A stretch of 63,977 bases of DNA, filler included, from Sandaracinaceae bacterium (lineage in GTDB: Bacteria; Myxococcota_A; Polyangia; Polyangiales; JADJQN01): NCBI GenBank assembly GCA_947483975.1. It is 13 parts of 13 records of this genome, joined end to end, with 100 filler letters (N's around TTAATTAATTAA, not from the genome) between each part and the next. Parts side by side here need not be neighbours in the genome. Positions count along the whole stretch, not along the records: positions 54,762 to 59,526 come from CANKOL010000394.1; 12 more parts are not named here. One strand, given 5' to 3'. Below are positions 2,879 to 59,626 of the stretch, in pieces (within the stretch, counting starts at the first letter, position 1; the number at the start of each line of letters is the position of its first letter). The translations under genes were made by a program, and so were the position numbers. The notes below the pieces were generated by a model. It was not told the DNA's origin, did no database searches, and was given only the letters and a program-made list of their open reading frames with translations.

Positions 2879-3742
2879 GTGACCGACCCGCGCGACCCGC
2901 GCTCCGTCTCGCCGCTCGCCGCCGTCACGCTGACCGTCGTGGCCGTCGCGCTCACCTACGCGCTGTTTCAGGGCGCCGTCGCGCTGCAGTCCCTCGCGCG
3001 CGGGCTGTCCTGGGAGCTCGCCCGGGAGCGCGTCATCCGCGACGCCCTCGGCCTCGCGCTCGTGCAGGCGGCGGCCTTCGCGCTCGTGCTCTTCGGCGCG
3101 GTGCGCCTGCACGCGCGCGTCGACGAGCCGCTCCGCGAGACGCTCGGCCTCCGCGCGGTGCCGTTTCACACGGCGCTCCTCGCGCTCGTCGCGGGCGCCG
3201 CGCTGCAGCTCCCGCTCGCGGAGCTCTCGAACCTCGTGCACGTCTTCGCGCCGATGCCCGCGGACCTGATGCAGCAGCAGCAGCGGCTCCTCGACGCGAG
3301 CTCGCCGCTCGTCGCGCTGACGGCGTTCGTGTCGTTCGTCGTCGTCGCGCCCGTCACCGAGGAGCTGCTCTTTCGCGGGATCATCCTGCGCGGCGCGCGC
3401 GTCTCGAGCGGGACGCTCCCGGCGCTCGGCCTCTCGAGCGCGCTCTTCGCGCTCAGTCATCTCGGCGCCGTCTCGGCGATCGTCTACGCGCTCGTCGCCG
3501 GCCTCGTCCTCGGCGCCGTCGCGCTCCGCACCGGCTCGACGCTCGTCGCGATCGCGCTGCACGCCGGCGTCAACGCCGTGCCCGTGCTGCTGCCGGCGCG
3601 CCTCGTCCGCATCGCCGGCTTCAACACGCTCGCGCCCCACGTCTCGCCCGCCCTCGTGATAGGCTCCGCCCTCGTCGCGGCCGGCGCCCTCGCGCTCCTC
3701 TCGCGCACGGCTCCCGCCGCCGAAGACGAGGCCGATCGATGA
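2879..3742 (+). CDS. CPBP/Abi (CAAX prenyl protease-like) intramembrane metalloprotease
   Basis: Motifs PVTEELLFRG, LFALSH and ALHAGVN; multiple TM segments; GTG start inferred. Confidence 0.85.
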   Translation: MTDPRDPRSVSPLAAVTLTVVAVALTYALFQGAVALQSLARGLSWELARERVIRDALGLALVQAAAFALVLFGAVRLHARVDEPLRETLGLRAVPFHTALLALVAGAALQLPLAELSNLVHVFAPMPADLMQQQQRLLDASSPLVALTAFVSFVVVAPVTEELLFRGIILRGARVSSGTLPALGLSSALFALSHLGAVSAIVYALVAGLVLGAVALRTGSTLVAIALHAGVNAVPVLLPARLVRIAGFNTLAPHVSPALVIGSALVAAGALALLSRTAPAAEDEADR

Positions 3743-4830
3743 GCCCAGCACTTTCCCGAGAGAGACGCCTCGGACTTTCGCTCCCCGGAGGGGGCGTCAC
3801 CGGCGCGATGTATCAAGTCGGAGTCGTCGCCGCGCTCGAGGACGGGCTCGAGAACTTCCGCGCGTCGGACCTCGACGTCTTCGTCGGCTCCTCGACGGGC
3901 GCGACGGTCGCGACCTTCCTCGCGGCGGGCAACTCCGCCCAGCGCCTCTATCGCGCGCTCCTCGACCCGGCGGACACGTTCTTTCCGCTCAAGCGCCATC
4001 ATCTGATGCGCCTCGACGGCGCGGAGTGGCAGCGCGTCGGGCTGAGCACCGTCGCCGCCGCGCGCCGCCTGCTCTCGTCGGTCACCTCGCGCCCGCTCGA
4101 GGCGGACCTCTGGAACGAGCTCGACCGCTTCTGGGACTCGCTCCCGGCGGGCATCTTCACGCTCGACGGCTACGAGCACTTTCTCGCCGAGATCATGCTC
4201 CGCCGCGGCGTGCCCGACCGCTTCGCGGACATGCCCCGCAAGCTCGTCGTCGTCGCGATCGACCTCGATCAGGGGGCCCGCGCGCTCTTCGGCCTCGGCG
4301 CGCTCGCGCACGTGCCCGTCGCCCGCGCCGTCTGCGCCTCCGCCGCGACGCCGATCCTCTTCGCGCCCGTGCGCATCGAGGGGCGCGACTACGTCGAGGG
4401 CGGCCTCGGCGCCGTCGCGCACGCCGACGTCGCGCAGTCGCTCGGCTGCGACCTCGTCCTCGTCGTCAACCCGATGGTGCCGATCCAGACGGACCCCGCC
4501 GTGCGCGACATCCCGACCGGCCACGGCACGATGCAGCACGTCCGCGACAAGGGCGCGCTCTGGGTCTACAGCCAGTCTTGGCGCGTCCGCACCGAGTCGC
4601 GGATGCGCGAGGGCGTCGCGCGCTTTCACGCCGAGAACCCGAACACCCGCGTCGTGCTGATCGAGCCCGATCAGACCGACGCGACGATGTTCATGTACTC
4701 ACCGATGAACTTCGCGGCCCGCCGCCACATCCTCGAGGACGGCTACACCCAGACGATGAAGGCGCTCCGCACGCCCGAGTCCCCGCTGCGCTGCGCGCTC
4801 GAGTCGCGCGGCCTCGTCGCCAAGTCCTGA
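3739..4830 (+). CDS. Patatin-like phospholipase family protein
   Basis: GGGVTG oxyanion motif, GSSTG nucleophile motif, ASAA-P and YVEGG (DGG variant). ATGA overlap with the upstream gene. Confidence 0.85.
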   Translation: MSPALSRERRLGLSLPGGGVTGAMYQVGVVAALEDGLENFRASDLDVFVGSSTGATVATFLAAGNSAQRLYRALLDPADTFFPLKRHHLMRLDGAEWQRVGLSTVAAARRLLSSVTSRPLEADLWNELDRFWDSLPAGIFTLDGYEHFLAEIMLRRGVPDRFADMPRKLVVVAIDLDQGARALFGLGALAHVPVARAVCASAATPILFAPVRIEGRDYVEGGLGAVAHADVAQSLGCDLVLVVNPMVPIQTDPAVRDIPTGHGTMQHVRDKGALWVYSQSWRVRTESRMREGVARFHAENPNTRVVLIEPDQTDATMFMYSPMNFAARRHILEDGYTQTMKALRTPESPLRCALESRGLVAKS

Positions 4831-4846
4831 GGGCTGCCCCAATGAA

Positions 4847-4955
4847 CGCAGGCGCCGAATGACCGTCTCCGAAGCCAGCGCAGGCGCCGAATGACCGTCT
4901 CCGAAGCCAGCGCAGGCGCCGAATGACCGTCTCCGAAGCCAGCGCAGGCGCCGAA
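4847..4955. repeat. 32-bp perfect tandem repeat (CGCAGGCGCCGAATGACCGTCTCCGAAGCCAG), 3.4 copies, running into the contig end
   Basis: Units at 4847, 4879 and 4911 plus a partial unit at 4943-4955; no spacers. Confidence 0.95.
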
Positions 4956-5055
4956 NNNNNNNNNNNNNNNNNNNNNNNNNNNNNNNNNNNNNNNNNNNNT
5001 TAATTAATTAANNNNNNNNNNNNNNNNNNNNNNNNNNNNNNNNNNNNNNNNNNNN
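4956..5055. other. Artificial contig linker (first of 12)
   Basis: N44-TTAATTAATTAA-N44. Identical linkers at 10000-10099, 15038-15137, 20073-20172, 25075-25174, 30053-30152, 35024-35123, 39977-40076, 44877-44976, 49771-49870, 54662-54761 and 59527-59626. Confidence 0.99.
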
Positions 5056-5705
5056 GCGATGCGCTGCGCTGCCTCGCGGGACAAGCCCGACGGGGGAGCG
5101 ACGCTGTTGCCGCGCGAGAGCACGCCCGGCGGGAGGTTGGCGTGCCCGAGGCGCTCCGCGAACGACGGCGGCGAGGAGCGACGGACCGGCGGCGGGGGAG
5201 TCTGCGGGACCTCCGGGGCGGCGACGACGACGGGCTCGGGCGGCGGGGGCGCGATGGGCTCCGCGAAGACCTCGGCCATCGTCTGCACGGGCTCGGGGTT
5301 CGGCGGCGGAGGCGGAAGCTCGACGCGCGCGGCGGCGATCTCGGCGACCGGGGGAGGCGGCGGAGGCGGCGGAGGCAGCAAGACCTCCGTGCTCGGGGCG
5401 TCGACCCGCGGCGCGGCGGGCTTCAAGCGCGTCACGACCGGGGCCAGCTCGGGCTTGGCGGCGACGGGGGGCGGCGTCGGAGCGGCGACGGTGCGACGAC
5501 GGATGACCGTCGCGTTGATGCGCTCCTTGACCACCGAGCCGGTCTTCTCCTTCTCGATGGAGGACTTGAGACGTTCGATCTCTCCCTCCTCGAGCGAGCT
5601 CATGTGGTTCTTCACCTGAATGCCGAGGGTCGCCATCTTCTTGACGAGCTCCGCATTCTCGAGCCCCAGCTCGCGAGCGACCTCGTACACGCGCACCTTG
5701 ATCAT
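5056..5705 (-). CDS. infB: Translation initiation factor IF-2, N-terminal part (3' truncated)
   Basis: [14 protein letters not shown]...LGIQVKNHMSSLEE is the IF2_N domain, followed by a Pro-rich linker. Canonical position after nusA-ylxR. Confidence 0.9.
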
Positions 5706-54661: not shown

Positions 54662-54761
54662 NNNNNNNNNNNNNNNNNNNNNNNNNNNNNNNNNNNNNNN
54701 NNNNNTTAATTAATTAANNNNNNNNNNNNNNNNNNNNNNNNNNNNNNNNNNNNNNNNNNNN

Positions 54762-54934
54762 CCCGGCGCGCTCACCAGGGCGACGAGCGGCGCCCCGGCG
54801 TCACGTCCCTTCGACTCGAGCGCGCGCAACGGAGCCCGCCGCGCCGCGTCGACCGCGGGCGGTTGTGTCCCACACTCGGGGCAGCTCGGTTCGTCCTCGG
54901 GGAGCGTCCGACCACAGCGCTGACAGCTCTGCAT
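54762..54934 (-). CDS. Zinc-ribbon protein, N-terminal fragment
   Basis: CQRCG...CPECG. Confidence 0.55.
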
Positions 54935-55096
54935 GTGTGTCTAATCGCCCCCCCGCGGACAGCCTCGGGCGGGAACGCCGCAAGCATAGCCGAACGGCCG
55001 CGCTGTGGTCGTCCGCGCGAATAATTGGTGCGCGCTTGTGTGCGCTTGTACGAGCTTGCGCGCGCTCTCGCCGCGCAGCTAACATCGGCGCCCACC

Positions 55097-56431
55097 ATGA
55101 CTACCTGCCGCGAGCTTCGTGGAGACGCGGATGAGCGTCTCTTCGCCGGTGACTATCACGGCGCGCTTCACCGCTACGCCGCGCTCGTCACGCTGCAACC
55201 TCAGGATCTCGACGCGCGTCTCCGGGTCGCCGACACGCTCCTCTCGCTCGAGCAGGTGCAGCGCGCCGCGGTCGTCTACACGGCGCTCGCGCGGCACGCC
55301 GCGAACGGCGGATACCCGCTGCGAGCGCTCGTCGCGCTCAAGGTGCTGATGCGCCTCGAGCCGCAGCTCGCCGCGCTCCTCGCGCCCGTCGCGCAGCTCT
55401 ATGCGCTCGGCTCGCCGCGCCTCGGTCGCGCCGTGCGCCTCTCGCCCGGCAATCCCGAACAAGAGCTGCCGCCGACGCTCTCGTTCGCCGAGCAGAAGCC
55501 GCTCCAGGACCTCATCGAGTACGCCGAGCGGATGGCGTCCAACCTCGACCCGATCGGCGCGTACCCCGAGTTTCTCCCGGCGATCCCGCTCTTCAGCGAG
55601 CTGCCCGCCGACGCCTTCGCGGCCGTGCTCGGGGCGCTCAAGCTCAAACGCCCGCGTCCGGGCGAGACCATCATCGCGGAGGGCGAGCCGGGGCAGTCCT
55701 TCTACATGCTCGCGCGCGGCACCGTGCGCGTCACGCGGAAGGACCTCTCCGGCGCTGTGATCCCGCTCGCTTCGCTGCACGATGGCTCGATCTTCGGCGA
55801 GATGGCCCTCGTCAGCGCCTCACCGCGCACCGCGACCGTGACCGCGGAGACCGACTGCGACCTGCTCGAGTTCGACCGCGAGGCGCTGACGAGCATCGCG
55901 CGCGAGGCCGGCACGATCGCGCGCGCGCTCGACAAATTCACCCGCGAGCGGCTGCTCAACAACCTCTTGGCGACCTCCGCGCTGTTCAAGCCGCTCGACC
56001 GCAAGCAGCGCCTCGACCTCGTGCGCCGCTTCACCGCGCACGACGTCGCGCAGAGCGTCGAGGTGATCCGCGAGGGGCAGGCGGGGCGCGGCCTCTTCGT
56101 CGTACTCGCCGGCGAGCTCGACGTCTCCAAGGTCGACGGCACCGACCGCGTGCTGCTCGCGACGCTCCACCCCGGCGACGTCTTCGGTGAGATCAGCCTG
56201 CTCAACGACGGTCCGACGACCGCGAGCGTGACCGCCGCGCGCACCTCGACCGTGCTCTTCCTCGCCCGCGAGATCTTCCAGCGCCTGCTCGAGGCCGTGC
56301 CGGACATCCGCGCATACATCGAGTCGCTCAGCGAGGAGCGCATGATGGACACGCGCATCGTCCTCGAGGCGAGCCGCGAGGACGAAGACGAGGCCGTCGA
56401 CCTCGACGAAGACGACCTCATCCTGATCTAG
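55097..56431 (+). CDS. TPR plus tandem cyclic-nucleotide-binding domain protein
   Basis: IPLFSEL, IIAEGEPG, FGEMAL...PRTATV and a second domain IREGQAG, FGEISL...PTTASV. Confidence 0.9.
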   Translation: MTTCRELRGDADERLFAGDYHGALHRYAALVTLQPQDLDARLRVADTLLSLEQVQRAAVVYTALARHAANGGYPLRALVALKVLMRLEPQLAALLAPVAQLYALGSPRLGRAVRLSPGNPEQELPPTLSFAEQKPLQDLIEYAERMASNLDPIGAYPEFLPAIPLFSELPADAFAAVLGALKLKRPRPGETIIAEGEPGQSFYMLARGTVRVTRKDLSGAVIPLASLHDGSIFGEMALVSASPRTATVTAETDCDLLEFDREALTSIAREAGTIARALDKFTRERLLNNLLATSALFKPLDRKQRLDLVRRFTAHDVAQSVEVIREGQAGRGLFVVLAGELDVSKVDGTDRVLLATLHPGDVFGEISLLNDGPTTASVTAARTSTVLFLAREIFQRLLEAVPDIRAYIESLSEERMMDTRIVLEASREDEDEAVDLDEDDLILI

Positions 56432-56637
56432 CGGTCCGCCCTTCGGCGACCCCACAAGCCTCGCGGACGGCCACTCGGGTGCCGCTCGGACGGCGACCCG
56501 TGACACGGATGTCGCGCCTCGCCCGCGCGCCGACTCCGCGCGCCCACCCCTCAACCGACCAAGGTTGAGGCGCTGTCTGGGATTATTCCGGGGAAATTGC
56601 GAGATCGAGCGCCGCGCCGACGTCTCCGCCGGGCGCC

Positions 56638-56653
56638 TGGCACCCGTGTTGCA
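56638..56653 (+). promoter_or_regulatory. Sigma54 (-24/-12) promoter
   Basis: TGGCAC-CCGTG-TTGCA with exact GG-N10-GC spacing; predicted start near 56664. Confidence 0.75.
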
Positions 56654-56663
56654 CCACAAAGCC

Positions 56664-57050
56664 TCCGTAGGGACGGCGCCGGCCGGTCTCTGATTTCTTA
56701 GGGTCTCTCGTAGGGTGCTGGCTGCCCGGCTCGTCACCCGCCGCTGAGACGCTCGATCAGGCCGCTTTGCTTGCTTTCTTCGCCTAGCCGCTGCTTCGAC
56801 TCTACTTCTACTACGTCCGCGTTGCCGCTTTCCTGAATGTCGCTTCGTCTCGGGGACCCCTCGCGACCTTCGCCTCGCTTCGCATCCTCGCGCTTCGCCT
56901 TGCCTGTGCGCTCTACGCGTTGTGGCTGACTTCGAATCTACTGTTCCGCGCGCCCCGTTCGCAAGCACCCCTTCCTTTCTCTTACTTTGGCCGTCGGCAG
57001 GCTGCGTTTCGCAGTCTGTCTACCGAACGGGGCGCGCGGTTCTTTTCTTC
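56664..57050 (+). ncRNA. Candidate sigma54-dependent non-coding RNA (~390 nt)
   Basis: Bounded by the sigma54 promoter and a terminator; no credible ORF; C/T-rich core with 7 CTTCG motifs; nested 5' stems. Confidence 0.55.
56946..57050 (+). terminator. Branched intrinsic terminator-like structure
   Basis: Perfect 16-bp stem (56946-56961 with 57024-57039) enclosing an 11-bp hairpin (56996-57020), followed by TTCTTTTCTTC. Confidence 0.7.
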
Positions 57051-57089
57051 CGTGGTTCGCATTGCTCGCGGCCGATGTATCCTCCGCGC

Positions 57090-57542
57090 ATGAATCGCGT
57101 GATGACGCGCCGCTCGATCGGCCTCGCCTCCATTCTCGCCGTCCTTCTGCTCGGTGGCTGCGCCGCCCTGAAGGACGACATGCAGCAAGCGGAGTCCGCG
57201 TTCGACGCCGCGCAGTACGACGACTCGCTCGTCTGGCTGCAGGACCTCGAGCCCGACGCGACCGACATGGACGTCGACATGCGCGCGCGCTTCTACTACC
57301 TGCGCGGCATGACGGCCTATCGCCTCGGAAACCGCGCCGATGCGCTGCACTATCTCGCGCTCGCGCGTGAGGTCGCCGGCGAGCGCAACGACGGTCTCCG
57401 CCCCGAGTGGGGCACGGCGATGACGCGCACGATCACCGAGCTTGCGCCCGATGGCGCGGGCGGTGAGGAGTCGCGCGTCAACGCTCGGACGAGCGGCGGC
57501 GAGCAGCGCAACGCCGACAGCTCCGGCTCCCGCAACCGCTGA
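57090..57542 (+). CDS. Small TPR-like lipoprotein
   Basis: LLLGGC lipobox; RFYYLRGMTAYRLG...ALHYLALA. Confidence 0.8.
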   Translation: MNRVMTRRSIGLASILAVLLLGGCAALKDDMQQAESAFDAAQYDDSLVWLQDLEPDATDMDVDMRARFYYLRGMTAYRLGNRADALHYLALAREVAGERNDGLRPEWGTAMTRTITELAPDGAGGEESRVNARTSGGEQRNADSSGSRNR

Positions 57543-57546
57543 AACG

Positions 57547-57576
57547 GAAGAAGGCGCCCCGAAAGGCGCCTTCTTC
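57547..57576. terminator. Hairpin between convergent genes (probable bidirectional terminator)
   Basis: GAAGAAGGCGCC-CCGAAA-GGCGCCTTCTTC. Confidence 0.75.
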
Positions 57577-57635
57577 ATCGACTCTCAGCGAGCGGCTGTT
57601 ACCAGCGGCGGCCGTTGCTCAGCGGGCAGCGCGGC

Positions 57636-57836
57636 TCAGCAAGCCGCCCGACGCAGCTCGCTGATCGCGTCCTTCTTCGCCAGCTTCTTCTTCTTGAGCT
57701 CTTGCGCCTCACGCTGCTCGGCGGCGGTCAGCAGCACGCGACGGTCGAGCTCCGCCACGCGCTCCTTCAACTGTCGGTGTTCCTCTTCGAGCCGAGCGAT
57801 CGCCACCATCGGGTTGTCGTTCAGACGCTTGCTCAT
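57636..57836 (-). CDS. DUF465/YdcH-family small coiled-coil protein
   Basis: L.EEH..L...V.EL...LKKKKL..KD.I; strong RBS AGGAGG. Confidence 0.85.
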   Translation of the reverse strand: MSKRLNDNPMVAIARLEEEHRQLKERVAELDRRVLLTAAEQREAQELKKKKLAKKDAISELRRAAC

Positions 57837-58087
57837 GAACTTACCTCCTGCATCGTTGGACCGGGCACCCAGACCGAAGAACGGAAGCAAGCACCAGAGG
57901 CGTCCATGCTAGATCCCGCCCGTCCTTCGGCGCAAGTGCGCCTCCCGGGAAACATCGGCGCGACGGCTCCATTCCCGGTGCGCCCGTCGTCCGCGCGAAT
58001 CTCGAGGTCCGCCGGGACGTTCTCGACAGAATAGATGTTCGCGCTCTGGTGTCCGAACGAGAGCAGCCCGCAGGAGAGAAACGCGCC

Positions 58088-58840
58088 ATGACCGCCCGCT
58101 CGCCGTCCGCTTCGCCTCGCTTCACCAGCCGCCGTGTCGTTCGCTCGCTCGCCTTCGTCTCGGTCGCGCTCGCGGCGCTCGTCGCCTCGGCGAGCAGCGT
58201 CGTCGTGTCGCACAGCGAAGCGCAGCAGGCGCCCACGGCGCTCCAAGTCGCCGCGCGCGTGCAGCACTTCTACGATCAGGTCCCGGTCGTGCGGATGCGC
58301 TTCTTTCAGACCTACTACGTCAAGCTCCACAACCGCTACGAGCGCTCGAGCGGCACCGTCACGTTCAAGAAGCCGGGCAAGATGTTCTGGCGCTACGACG
58401 CGCCAAACCTGAAGATCCTCGTCTCGGACGGCACGCACATTCAGCTCTTCGAGCCGGGCAGCGCTGGCGAGCCTGGGCAGGTCGTCGAGACCGCCGTCGC
58501 CGACAGCGAGCTTCCGCAGGCGCTCTCGTTCCTCACGGGGCAGGGTCGGCTCGAGGAGCAGTACGCGTTTCGCCTCGTCGACCCGCGCACGCAGGGCTTC
58601 GACGTCCCCGGTGGGCAGGTGCTCGAGCTTCGACCGCGCCGCACGAACCCCAACTACGAGCGGCTGCTGCTCTACGTGACGAACGGCAGCATGGTCGTGC
58701 GCGTGCTGGTCATCGCACACGACGGCAACCGCAACCGCTTCGACTTCAGCCACGTCGAGGTCGCGCGCGTCAACGCGCCGGACAGCGACTTCGTGTGGCA
58801 TCCGCCGGCAGGCACGCGGCGCGTCACGACCGCGAACTGA
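58088..58840 (+). CDS. lolA: Outer-membrane lipoprotein carrier LolA
   Basis: Signal peptide; F.Q...SSG.V.FKKPGKMFWRY..P....VSDG. Confidence 0.85.
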   Translation: MTARSPSASPRFTSRRVVRSLAFVSVALAALVASASSVVVSHSEAQQAPTALQVAARVQHFYDQVPVVRMRFFQTYYVKLHNRYERSSGTVTFKKPGKMFWRYDAPNLKILVSDGTHIQLFEPGSAGEPGQVVETAVADSELPQALSFLTGQGRLEEQYAFRLVDPRTQGFDVPGGQVLELRPRRTNPNYERLLLYVTNGSMVVRVLVIAHDGNRNRFDFSHVEVARVNAPDSDFVWHPPAGTRRVTTAN

Positions 58841-58849
58841 GCGCGGGAA

Positions 58850-59526
58850 TCACTCGGCGCGCAGGAGGGCGTCGAGGTGAGGCGCGAGCGCGGGCCAGGT
58901 GTAGAGCGCGGCGGTCTTGCTCGCCGCGCGGGAGAGTTTGCGGCGCAGCGCGGGCTCCGTCCGGACGCGCTCGAGGGCGCGCGTCAGCGCGGGCACATCG
59001 CCGGGGGCGACGAGCAAGCCGTTGCGCTCGTGCGCGACGACTGACGCGACGCCTCCGACGCTCGTCGCCACGACGGGCAGGCCCGCCGCCATCGCCTCGA
59101 GCAGCGCGGTCGGCGTGCCCTCGGTGCGCCCCGAGGGCAGCACGCGGGACGCGAGCACGAAGGCGTCCGCCGCGGCGAAGAGATCGCGCTTTGCCTGTCC
59201 GGTGACGAGCCCGAGAAAGCGCGCGCGCGCCCCGCAGCCCTCGGCGAGCCGAGCGAGGTTCGCGCGCTCGGGCCCATCGCCCGCGACCAGCAGCGAGGTC
59301 TCGTCGAGCGGCGCGACGGCGCGCACTGCGTCGTCGGTGCCCTTCACCGGCACGAGGCGCCCGAGGGAGAGCACGCTGAAGTCGTCGAGCGCCTGCGCCC
59401 GCCGCAGCGCGCGCCGCGGCGCCGAGGGCTCCGTCAGCGGGTCGATGCCCATCGGCGAGACATGGCAGCGCCCGGCGACGGCGGCGCGCGGCACGGGCGC
59501 GAGGAGCCCGAGGAAGGTGTCGCGGA
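58850..59526 (-). CDS. GT4 glycosyltransferase, C-terminal part (5' truncated)
   Basis: LGRLVPVKG, AGDGPER and TEGTPTALLEAMAAGLPVVAT.VGG. Confidence 0.9.
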
Positions 59527-59626
59527 NNNNNNNNNNNNNNNNNNNNNNNNNNNNNNNNNNNNNNNNNNNNTTAATTAATTAANNNNNNNNNNNNNNNNNN
59601 NNNNNNNNNNNNNNNNNNNNNNNNNN

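Follow-up and report, generated by a model that had tools for sequence, protein, structure and literature searches.

CrcZ and CrcY of Pseudomonas are sigma-54- and CbrB-dependent RNAs that sequester Hfq/Crc, and CsrB and RsmX, RsmY, and RsmZ are sponges of CsrA/RsmA. Here, we describe a predicted non-coding RNA of ~386 nucleotides (nt), on the plus strand at positions 56664–57049 of a 63,977-nt stretch of DNA (the window) from a Sandaracinaceae bacterium (assembly GCA_947483975.1), which a first-pass annotation had proposed to be a sigma-54-driven RNA with a repeat core, possibly a protein sponge. Its start is placed by the usual spacing after the -12 element and its end by a U-tract, both limits thus being predictions. 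As in CrcZ and CrcY, a sigma-54 promoter and an activator site are combined with an RNA of a few hundred nucleotides, a repeated single-stranded motif, and a terminator, and the logic that we propose is the same, in that an inducible RNA would titrate an RNA-binding regulator. However, the CrcZ motif is A-rich, whereas the present RNA is built around a CUU(C/G)G motif and contains only 8–12% A; it differs further in phylum, in enhancer (GACA-N4-TGTC), and in activator (of the FHA-GAF type rather than a response regulator). With CsrB and the Rsm RNAs it shares a conserved motif and copy number in an RNA whose length and sequence drift fast, but those RNAs, which depend on GacA/UvrY and sigma-70, display GGA in the loops of hairpins, whereas the present RNA has a sigma-54 promoter and a CUU-based motif, and no array of GGA (ANGGA) elements was found in it.

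Two further RNAs invite comparison. Pxr, a developmental small RNA (sRNA) of Myxococcus xanthus, is described as ~108 nt long with three stem-loops, as lying between nla19 and an NADH dehydrogenase gene, and as thought to be transcribed from a sigma-54 promoter (PMC5568312). The present RNA would likewise be a myxobacterial sRNA with a presumed sigma-54 promoter, but it is set apart by its length (~390 nt, and 70–700 nt in its family), its motif-rich sequence, its single 5' stem-loop domain and branched terminator, its neighbors (cNMP-binding and lipoprotein genes), and its taxon, the class Polyangia. The enterobacterial GlmY is similar in being a sigma-54-controlled decoy RNA tied to cell-envelope physiology; it is GlrR-dependent and sequesters RapZ, but does so by mimicking the structure of GlmZ and not through a motif array (in part after PMC7073468). 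The activator site of GlmY is, as here, a short inverted repeat of the GACA/TGTC type.

The first-pass annotation had recognized no family for the RNA, and none was matched in Rfam 15, either over the whole window at gathering thresholds or over positions 56400–57150 at E-values up to 10. A search of 20 homologous loci gave one chance-level match, to ctRNA_pGA1 (E = 0.098; 29 bits, where the threshold is 45). Literature searches, at the level of listings and abstracts, brought up no RNA of this kind from Polyangia. Judged from its sequence, the locus would encode an inducible motif-array regulatory RNA under sigma-54 control that fits no described RNA family and points to a new regulatory circuit.

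The predicted promoter is a -24/-12 element, TGGCAC-N5-TTGCA (TGGCACCCGTGTTGCA), which is present on the plus strand at 56638–56653 exactly as first claimed, and which is a perfect match with equivalents in relatives. By itself, this match is unremarkable and not significant: it is the sole one in the window, 0.5 being expected by chance when up to one mismatch is allowed, and at least one occurred in 40 of 100 shuffled sequences. Because of this, and because CTTCG clusters occur elsewhere in the genome, significance was sought in relatives. The RNA body is too divergent for BLAST, with the region as query matching only itself and a DNA search of 41 relatives yielding just short, chance-like matches to the promoter-proximal 40 nt; flanking proteins were therefore used as anchors. 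The lipoprotein gene that follows the RNA was found, as a single copy, in 104 of 151 genomes of the order, a tally that includes an unpublished genome, G122; 101 of these loci were examined, G122 and two genomes with the gene at a contig end (G068 and G145) being left out. Allowing up to one mismatch with GG and GC kept, a sigma-54 promoter lies on the strand of the lipoprotein gene and no more than 1300 nt upstream of it in 53 of the 101 loci. The 128 kb of upstream sequence contained 56 forward matches and nine in the opposite orientation, whereas only six were seen in 365 kb downstream. It is conservation in relatives that raises the observation above chance.

The promoter is accompanied by a palindrome, GACA-N4-TGTC (TGACACGGATGTCG), at 56501–56514 and 136 nt upstream of the -24 element, which is the candidate enhancer (upstream activating sequence). 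The same palindrome, usually in the form (T/C)GACA-N3-ATGTCA, occurs 78–167 nt 5' of the -24 element in 50 of the 53 promoter-bearing loci. Upstream of the lipoprotein gene it was seen in 68 of 101 loci, versus six copies in 183 kb of control sequence, and the whole 5.3-Mb genome holds 21 copies. If up to two promoter mismatches are allowed, palindrome and promoter occur together in forward orientation at 60 loci. The locus therefore has the -24 GG and -12 GC of a sigma-54 promoter at the TGGCAC-N5-TTGC spacing, and an activator site within the range of ~80–200 nt from it. The GlrR site is TGTC-N10-GACA, the palindrome described here being instead GACA-N4-TGTC.

Between promoter and terminator lies an A-poor, C/U-rich core (56760–56945, plus strand) that is predicted to be mostly single-stranded. 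It contains, as the first-pass annotation had listed, seven CUUCG motifs on the plus strand (at 56778, 56794, 56843, 56868, 56878, 56893, and 56930) together with CUAC motifs, and it also has CUUGCUU and CUUCGCC variants. The claim that its composition is unlike that of the surroundings was likewise confirmed, with 8% A, 32% T, 37% C, and 23% G in the core and 14–16% A in the flanking genes. Seven CTTCG within 160 nt form the densest plus-strand cluster of the window, the runner-up having four. Of 12 other CTTCG clusters inspected in the genome, 11 are in long stop-free frames, mostly repeat-rich and coding-like, and the twelfth is a series of terminators; the stretches scanned around these 12 contained no sigma-54 match at up to one mismatch. 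No paralogues of the RNA were found in the genome, where the strict motif gives no cluster of three or more per 300 nt.

In relatives, the CUUCG motif proved to be real and to be the core of a family-wide motif, CUU(C/G)G, and part of a wider one, CUU(C/G)GCUU or CUUGCUU. The RNA bodies of these relatives, ~70–700 nt long, are A-poor and packed with CUUCGCUU, CUUGGCUU, and CUUGCUU, the number of motif copies per RNA ranging from a few to more than 30. Over the 53 loci with a strict promoter, the body consists of 12% A, 34% C, 27% G, and 27% T; given this composition, CTTCGCTT was observed 68 times (in 36 of the 53 loci) against 1.1 expected, a 60-fold excess, and CTTGGCTT 31 times against 0.9, a 34-fold excess, while CTTGCTT was observed 39 times against 3.3 expected. 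Spacing from one CTT to another was 5 nt in 203 cases and 4 nt in 141, with 22 expected for each (60 loci). Motif positions are predicted to be unpaired more often than the rest of the RNA, with a mean of 0.52 versus 0.42 and a higher value in 45 of 58 RNAs. A 34–60-fold enrichment, a period of 4–5 nt, and a bias toward unpaired positions are what is looked for in a sponge-type motif.

Some relatives have sequence elements of their own. The RNAs of L061, L062, and L067 are short forms of ~130 nt that begin with a G-rich GGUUGGUUGGU(G/A)UGAGG containing four GG runs, which might fold as a two-tier G-quadruplex or as a hairpin loop; this element is absent from the RNA of the window. The body of the L057 RNA has CTGTCTTT(A/G)TCGCTTC in four tandem copies, the GUCUUUG unit of which resembles the preferred site of a Bacillus cold-shock protein.

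The RNA is predicted to end in a branched intrinsic terminator (56946–57049, plus strand). Its perfect 16-bp outer stem, 56946–56961 with 57024–57039, encloses an inner hairpin and is followed by a U-tract at 57040–57049 (TTCTTTTCTT), in agreement with the original description. Among the relatives, 48 of 60 loci have a hairpin plus T-tail in the interval from promoter to gene, compared with 7 for the reverse strand and 14 for coding controls (60 each); a strong terminator (free energy of -20 or lower) was found in 33 of the 60, with its end at a median distance of 89 nt upstream of the ATG. RNA lengths implied by the terminators are ~70–700 nt, with a median of ~330 nt. Counts are given at both thresholds and with controls because the detector, which is simple, over-calls in T-rich sequence and missed the branched terminator of the window. 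Elsewhere in the genome, on the minus strand of contig C11 at ~1600–1900, an apparent 5S rRNA 3' end is succeeded by a tandem series of three to four hairpins that resemble terminators and have T-tails.

At the 5' end, the small hairpin CCGU-AGGG-ACGG is found at 56665–56676 (plus strand), where it had been reported; many relatives also have an early hairpin, as judged by reading rather than by counting. The nested stem-loop that follows (56690–56760, plus strand) has the stem halves initially given for it: CTGAT/ATCAG at 56690/56756, GTCTC/GAGAC at 56703/56746, and GGGTG/CACCC at 56713/56735. In the thermodynamic centroid of the RNA, this stem-loop and the branched terminator are both formed, and the core stays open. 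The apex (CUGGCUGCCCGGCUCG, with UGCCCGG at 56723–56729) is kept in a subset of relatives: UGCCCGG is present 29–99 nt past the predicted start in 10 loci from several families, the window included, and CUGCUUGCCCGGCAUG is present in five of the 10. By our own reading of single-sequence folds, UGCCCGG is at or near the apex of a hairpin in 8–9 of the 10 loci, and the stem sequences all differ. Differing stems under one apex indicate covariation in these modeled folds. From a MAFFT alignment of the 5' hairpins, RNAalifold recovered the 4-bp apical helix alone and not the outer stems, so that folds of individual sequences told more.

The first-pass annotation had made its claim depend on conservation of promoter, motifs, and stems in relatives, and conservation was found: the module, usually with an intrinsic terminator, adjoins the lipoprotein gene in 65 of 101 loci, representing 14 of 19 families. 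It is upstream of that gene and on the same strand in 60 of the 101, while the upstream neighbor varies. In five loci of one genus, the complete module (palindrome, promoter, 9–19 motif matches, and terminator) adjoins the lipoprotein gene yet points away from it. Two loci cut by contig ends, L059 and L073, retain a motif-rich body, their promoter region being missing, and L068 has a variant promoter. Motif clusters near the lipoprotein gene in family f11 were rejected as Pro/Lys/Tyr-rich coding repeats and are not the RNA.

Beyond the order, a strict composite pattern, defined as palindrome, promoter, and then CTTSGCTT within 200 nt, was found in 34 of 301 genomes of the class, including families of other orders; the reversed control pattern was found in none, and the composite pattern was in 0 of 98 genomes sampled from other classes of the phylum. 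Twelve loci from this class-wide search were fetched, 11 of them from other orders, and 10 pass a filter of at least four motifs; eight of the 10 are RNA-like with terminators, and two run into coding sequence. The lipoprotein gene is absent from all 12, and the next open reading frame (ORF) is convergent in at least six of the eight RNA-like loci. A pattern search also covered five genomes from families in which the module is missing beside the lipoprotein gene; matches in two genomes of family f17 were discarded, as they lead into protein-coding genes, and one other f17 genome and the f11 genome gave no match, so that this pattern did not reveal the RNA in them. From these comparisons, the RNA family appears to span the class, its named relatives being labeled Polyangiales, Polyangiaceae, or Myxococcales, and to accompany the lipoprotein gene in the order of the window but different genes in other orders.

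Metagenomes from lakes and fresh water contain the stretch. One metatranscriptome, X14, contains a 204-nt contig that matches 56733–56936, inside the predicted RNA, with 0 mismatches and at a depth of 2.8; such contigs show no ends or strand. Contigs of X14 also lie on the end of the cNMP-binding gene and on the DUF465 gene, none being found on the lipoprotein gene, and a second metatranscriptome, X20, covers just 57634–57700, outside the RNA. The X14 contig is a weak hint that the RNA is expressed.

An own promoter, an own terminator, and an orientation that is independent of the next gene are the marks of a stand-alone sRNA gene, and all three are found here. We consider it highly probable that the locus is a stand-alone sigma-54 RNA gene. 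The proposal that an unannotated gene for a non-coding RNA lies here, dependent on sigma-54, bounded by a terminator, and containing a pyrimidine motif in several copies, is thereby supported on sequence grounds, the comparison of relatives showing the promoter, the enhancer, the terminator, the motif array, the non-coding nature of the RNA, and its independence from the neighboring gene.

What the RNA would do is of course a separate question, and for the identity of the activator, the action in trans, and the titration of a protein we infer the following. Transcription would start from the sigma-54 promoter at 56638–56653, activated via the palindrome at 56501–56514 by an FHA-GAF-AAA+-HTH_8 protein, and would stop at the intrinsic terminator at 56946–57049. 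The product would have a structured 5' stem-loop, followed by a largely open, A-poor body with many copies of CUU(C/G)G or CUU(C/G)GCUU. When the activator fires, the RNA would accumulate and act in trans, and its array would sequester a single-strand RNA-binding protein, the normal targets of which would be released or re-programmed. CsrB/RsmZ and CrcZ, which are protein-titrating RNAs, evolve with the motif kept while the rest drifts, and most base-pairing sRNAs keep one seed. In the family described here, length, sequence, and neighbors change freely, whereas promoter, enhancer, A-poor composition, and pentamer array persist; titration is favored because this mode of evolution matches that of CsrB/RsmZ and CrcZ and is unlike that of most base-pairing sRNAs. 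As a whole, the reading of a stand-alone ~390-nt sigma-54 RNA that titrates a single-strand RNA-binding protein is tentative, its chance falling somewhat short of even. Of the partners suggested in the first-pass annotation (cold-shock-domain proteins, RRM proteins, or Rho), cold-shock proteins, which prefer pyrimidine-rich single strands, are plausible. The bolder form of the proposal, in which the RNA would be an inducible antagonist of a global post-transcriptional regulator, new in Polyangia, acting on a protein that recognizes single-stranded CUU(C/G)G pentamers, is possible but doubtful.

Several observations weigh against titration or against parts of the proposal. The candidate partners of the predicted sponge are uninformative: CsrA is encoded in the genome, but the RNA is without GGA arrays; a search for Hfq in the genome, which is 81% complete, gave nothing; and RRM genes are present here as in 149 of 151 genomes of the order, including those that lack the RNA, and because they are nearly ubiquitous the phyletic comparison is uninformative. 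The RNA of the window is itself without the strict 8-mer CTTSGCTT, having the degenerate forms CUUCGCC and CUUGCUU. The difference in unpaired probability, 0.52 versus 0.42, is modest as modeled, and the whole RNA is no more stable than shuffled sequences (z = -1.33). No strong terminator was detected in 27 of 60 loci, with a detector that also missed the branched one of the window, and the module is beside the lipoprotein gene in 0 of 13 loci of f17 and 0 of 9 of f11. Within the order, the RNA is nearly always beside the lipoprotein gene, which could reflect a local, cis role. Finally, the X14 contig is of low depth, and carry-over of DNA could account for it, the neighboring genes being at similar depth.

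The alternative that survives best is trans-acting base pairing with multiple seeds. CUU(C/G)G, CUU(C/G)GCUU, or the apical loop CUGCUUGCCCGGCAUG would pair with purine-rich mRNA sites, or the RNA would act as a sponge of another RNA; candidate sites are AAG-rich GCG-AAG/GCC-AAG (Ala-Lys) repeats, Lys/Arg-rich signal-peptide starts, and, through G-U wobble, GGAG-type ribosome-binding sites. The common codon pairs GCG-AAG and GCC-AAG have CUUCGC and CUUGGC as their exact reverse complements, a fit that is equally good and must be counted against protein titration as well. By our reading, several other motif clusters in the genome are the opposite strands of coding regions with Lys/Ala-rich repeats. 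A class of mRNAs with complementarity at many sites thus exists: read in antisense, these apparently coding repeats mimic the motifs of the RNA, and their mRNAs would complement it. The conserved single-stranded apical element on top of a covarying hairpin looks seed-like, and base-pairing sRNAs typically combine a sigma-54 promoter with a 5' hairpin and a terminator. Such sRNAs, however, normally hold one fixed seed at a near-constant length, whereas length here varies ~10-fold and copy number from a few to more than 30; the apical element is in just ~10 of 60 loci, and the failure to find Hfq in a genome that is 81% complete also counts against pairing. On balance, we think base pairing unlikely. 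Lys/Ala-rich repeats on the opposite strand (AAGAAGGCSGCS, for example) were noted at C169:4050–4400, C101:8500–8800, C105:9970–10250, C186:6365–7000, C261:3475–3709, and C77:11127–11377.

It could also be argued that the transcript is functionless, and that the act of sigma-54 transcription, or the DNA itself as a pyrimidine tract or a set of protein-binding direct repeats, insulates or interferes with neighboring promoters. The very low sequence conservation of the body is in keeping with this, and its short-period direct repeats could in principle be protein sites on DNA. Nevertheless, the motifs are strand-specific and always lie between a promoter and a terminator of the same strand, other orders retain both the motif and the paucity of A despite different neighbors, and a conserved hairpin with covarying stems implies selection at the level of RNA; we regard this explanation as improbable.

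Similarly improbable, and if anything slightly more so, is a cis-acting leader of the lipoprotein gene, with sigma-54 driving that gene and with the C/U stretch and terminator forming an attenuator subject to conditional read-through through, for example, a cold-shock protein or Rho. The position of the module, directly upstream and on the same strand in 60 of 101 loci of the order while the upstream neighbor varies, is what a leader would predict, and the 27 of 60 loci without a strong terminator by the detector used could be read likewise. The GC skew across the core, -0.22 to -0.33, is a C-over-G skew that resembles a Rho loading site, but G still makes up 23–27% of the body, more than would be expected of such a G-poor site. 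In 48 of 60 loci the gene is preceded by a hairpin plus T-tail, in the five loci of one genus the complete module is oriented away from it, and in other orders the module occurs with no lipoprotein gene nearby and mostly faces a convergent ORF. The lipoprotein gene moreover has what appears to be a promoter of its own. In the window, a -10-like box, TATCCT, lies at 57078–57083 (plus strand), outside the RNA and 6 nt before the lipoprotein ATG, which no Shine-Dalgarno sequence precedes. A TAnnnT box is found 5–9 nt before the in-frame start in 69 of 101 loci versus 20 of 558 internal control codons, and it is found with the RNA module (46 of 65) or without it (23 of 36). This layout, at 57078–57092 and its equivalents, suggests that the lipoprotein mRNA is conserved as a leaderless transcript with its own promoter. 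The divergent loci, the other-order neighbors, and the -10 box together contradict the possibility, allowed for at the outset, that the element is only the 5' untranslated region of the 57090 gene.

Weakest of all is a small protein, encoded by a 30-codon ATG frame at 56837–56929 or by a frame on the opposite strand, which is poor in stop codons because of its composition: this is very improbable, since in 8 pairs of alignable related copies 92 of the 103 indels have a length that is not divisible by 3, the longest ATG frame has a median of 9.5 codons over 60 homologous regions, no ribosome-binding site precedes 56837, and the 30-codon frame is without a counterpart in relatives, so that the earlier statement that the region has no credible ORF holds and the RNA reads as non-coding.

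A candidate for the activator was found on contig C65 (locus L148), where a gene at 1077–2909 encodes a 610-amino-acid FHA-GAF-Sigma54_activat-HTH_8 (AAA+) enhancer-binding protein. The palindrome (TGACAGCGATGTCA) recurs at ~2975 on this contig, 68 nt past the stop codon of the activator gene, and is followed by a sigma-54-like element, a lipoprotein ORF from ~3072, and a CarboxypepD_reg-domain gene (ORF 3542–5329). On contig C88 (locus L147), a palindrome at ~3001 has a sigma-54 promoter, CGGCACGCAGGTTGC, 66 nt downstream and precedes a PilZ-domain gene (ORF 3034–3657), which, from this arrangement, may be in the same regulon as the RNA. The activator gene is single-copy in 40 of 41 genomes, at 43–90% identity; a palindrome lies 5–200 nt 3' of it in 20 of 30 loci, with a sigma-54-like element 54–80 nt further. 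When compared with the named activators of NCBIfam, the protein gave a match under every cut-off. Given the shared site and the adjacency, it is likely that this FHA-GAF enhancer-binding protein activates the RNA gene.

The region studied is a short contig, C394, of this genome (G000), which occupies positions 54762–59526 of the window with a run of N on either side; these runs, 54662–54761 and 59527–59626, are joins between short contigs. The assembly is fragmented (524 contigs; 81% complete), and genes across the N runs are not real neighbors. The gene 5' of the RNA encodes a 468-amino-acid protein with two cNMP-binding domains and weak TPR matches. Synteny of this gene with the lipoprotein gene is restricted to the window's own family and one other, and the RNA follows the cNMP-binding gene only there; the gene was accordingly dropped as a component of the system, and the link to it drawn in the first-pass annotation is incidental. 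The lipoprotein gene (57090–57542, plus strand) is not part of the RNA but is its syntenic anchor within the order. Its 150-amino-acid product is small and TPR-like, with a lipoprotein-type signal and TPR-like matches that are weak, every one being below the Pfam cut-offs. Past it are a DUF465 gene on the opposite strand, then a LolA-like gene, and then a glycosyltransferase gene.

Regulatory RNAs of myxobacteria are almost unexplored, and our literature searches brought up only Pxr, which is of a different class. The RNA family proposed here can be defined by features that are searchable, namely the enhancer palindrome, the sigma-54 promoter, the CUU(C/G)G array, and the terminator, and its carriers are found in many genomes of Polyangia, a class known for large genomes and natural products. 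The finding also proposes an activator and two co-regulated transcription units, in a branch that would lead from a kinase through the FHA-GAF activator and sigma-54 to the RNA. If a protein is what the RNA titrates, a new RNA-binding regulator and its new recognition motif would come to light; if AAG-rich mRNAs are instead what it pairs with, the RNA would be a multi-seed regulator of an unusual kind. Should the RNA prove to be an inducible antagonist of a global regulator, the circuit would rank with Csr/Rsm and Crc/Hfq, with a new motif and protein, and would be tied to Ser/Thr-kinase signaling by the FHA-GAF sigma-54 activator, which would also control envelope and PilZ genes.

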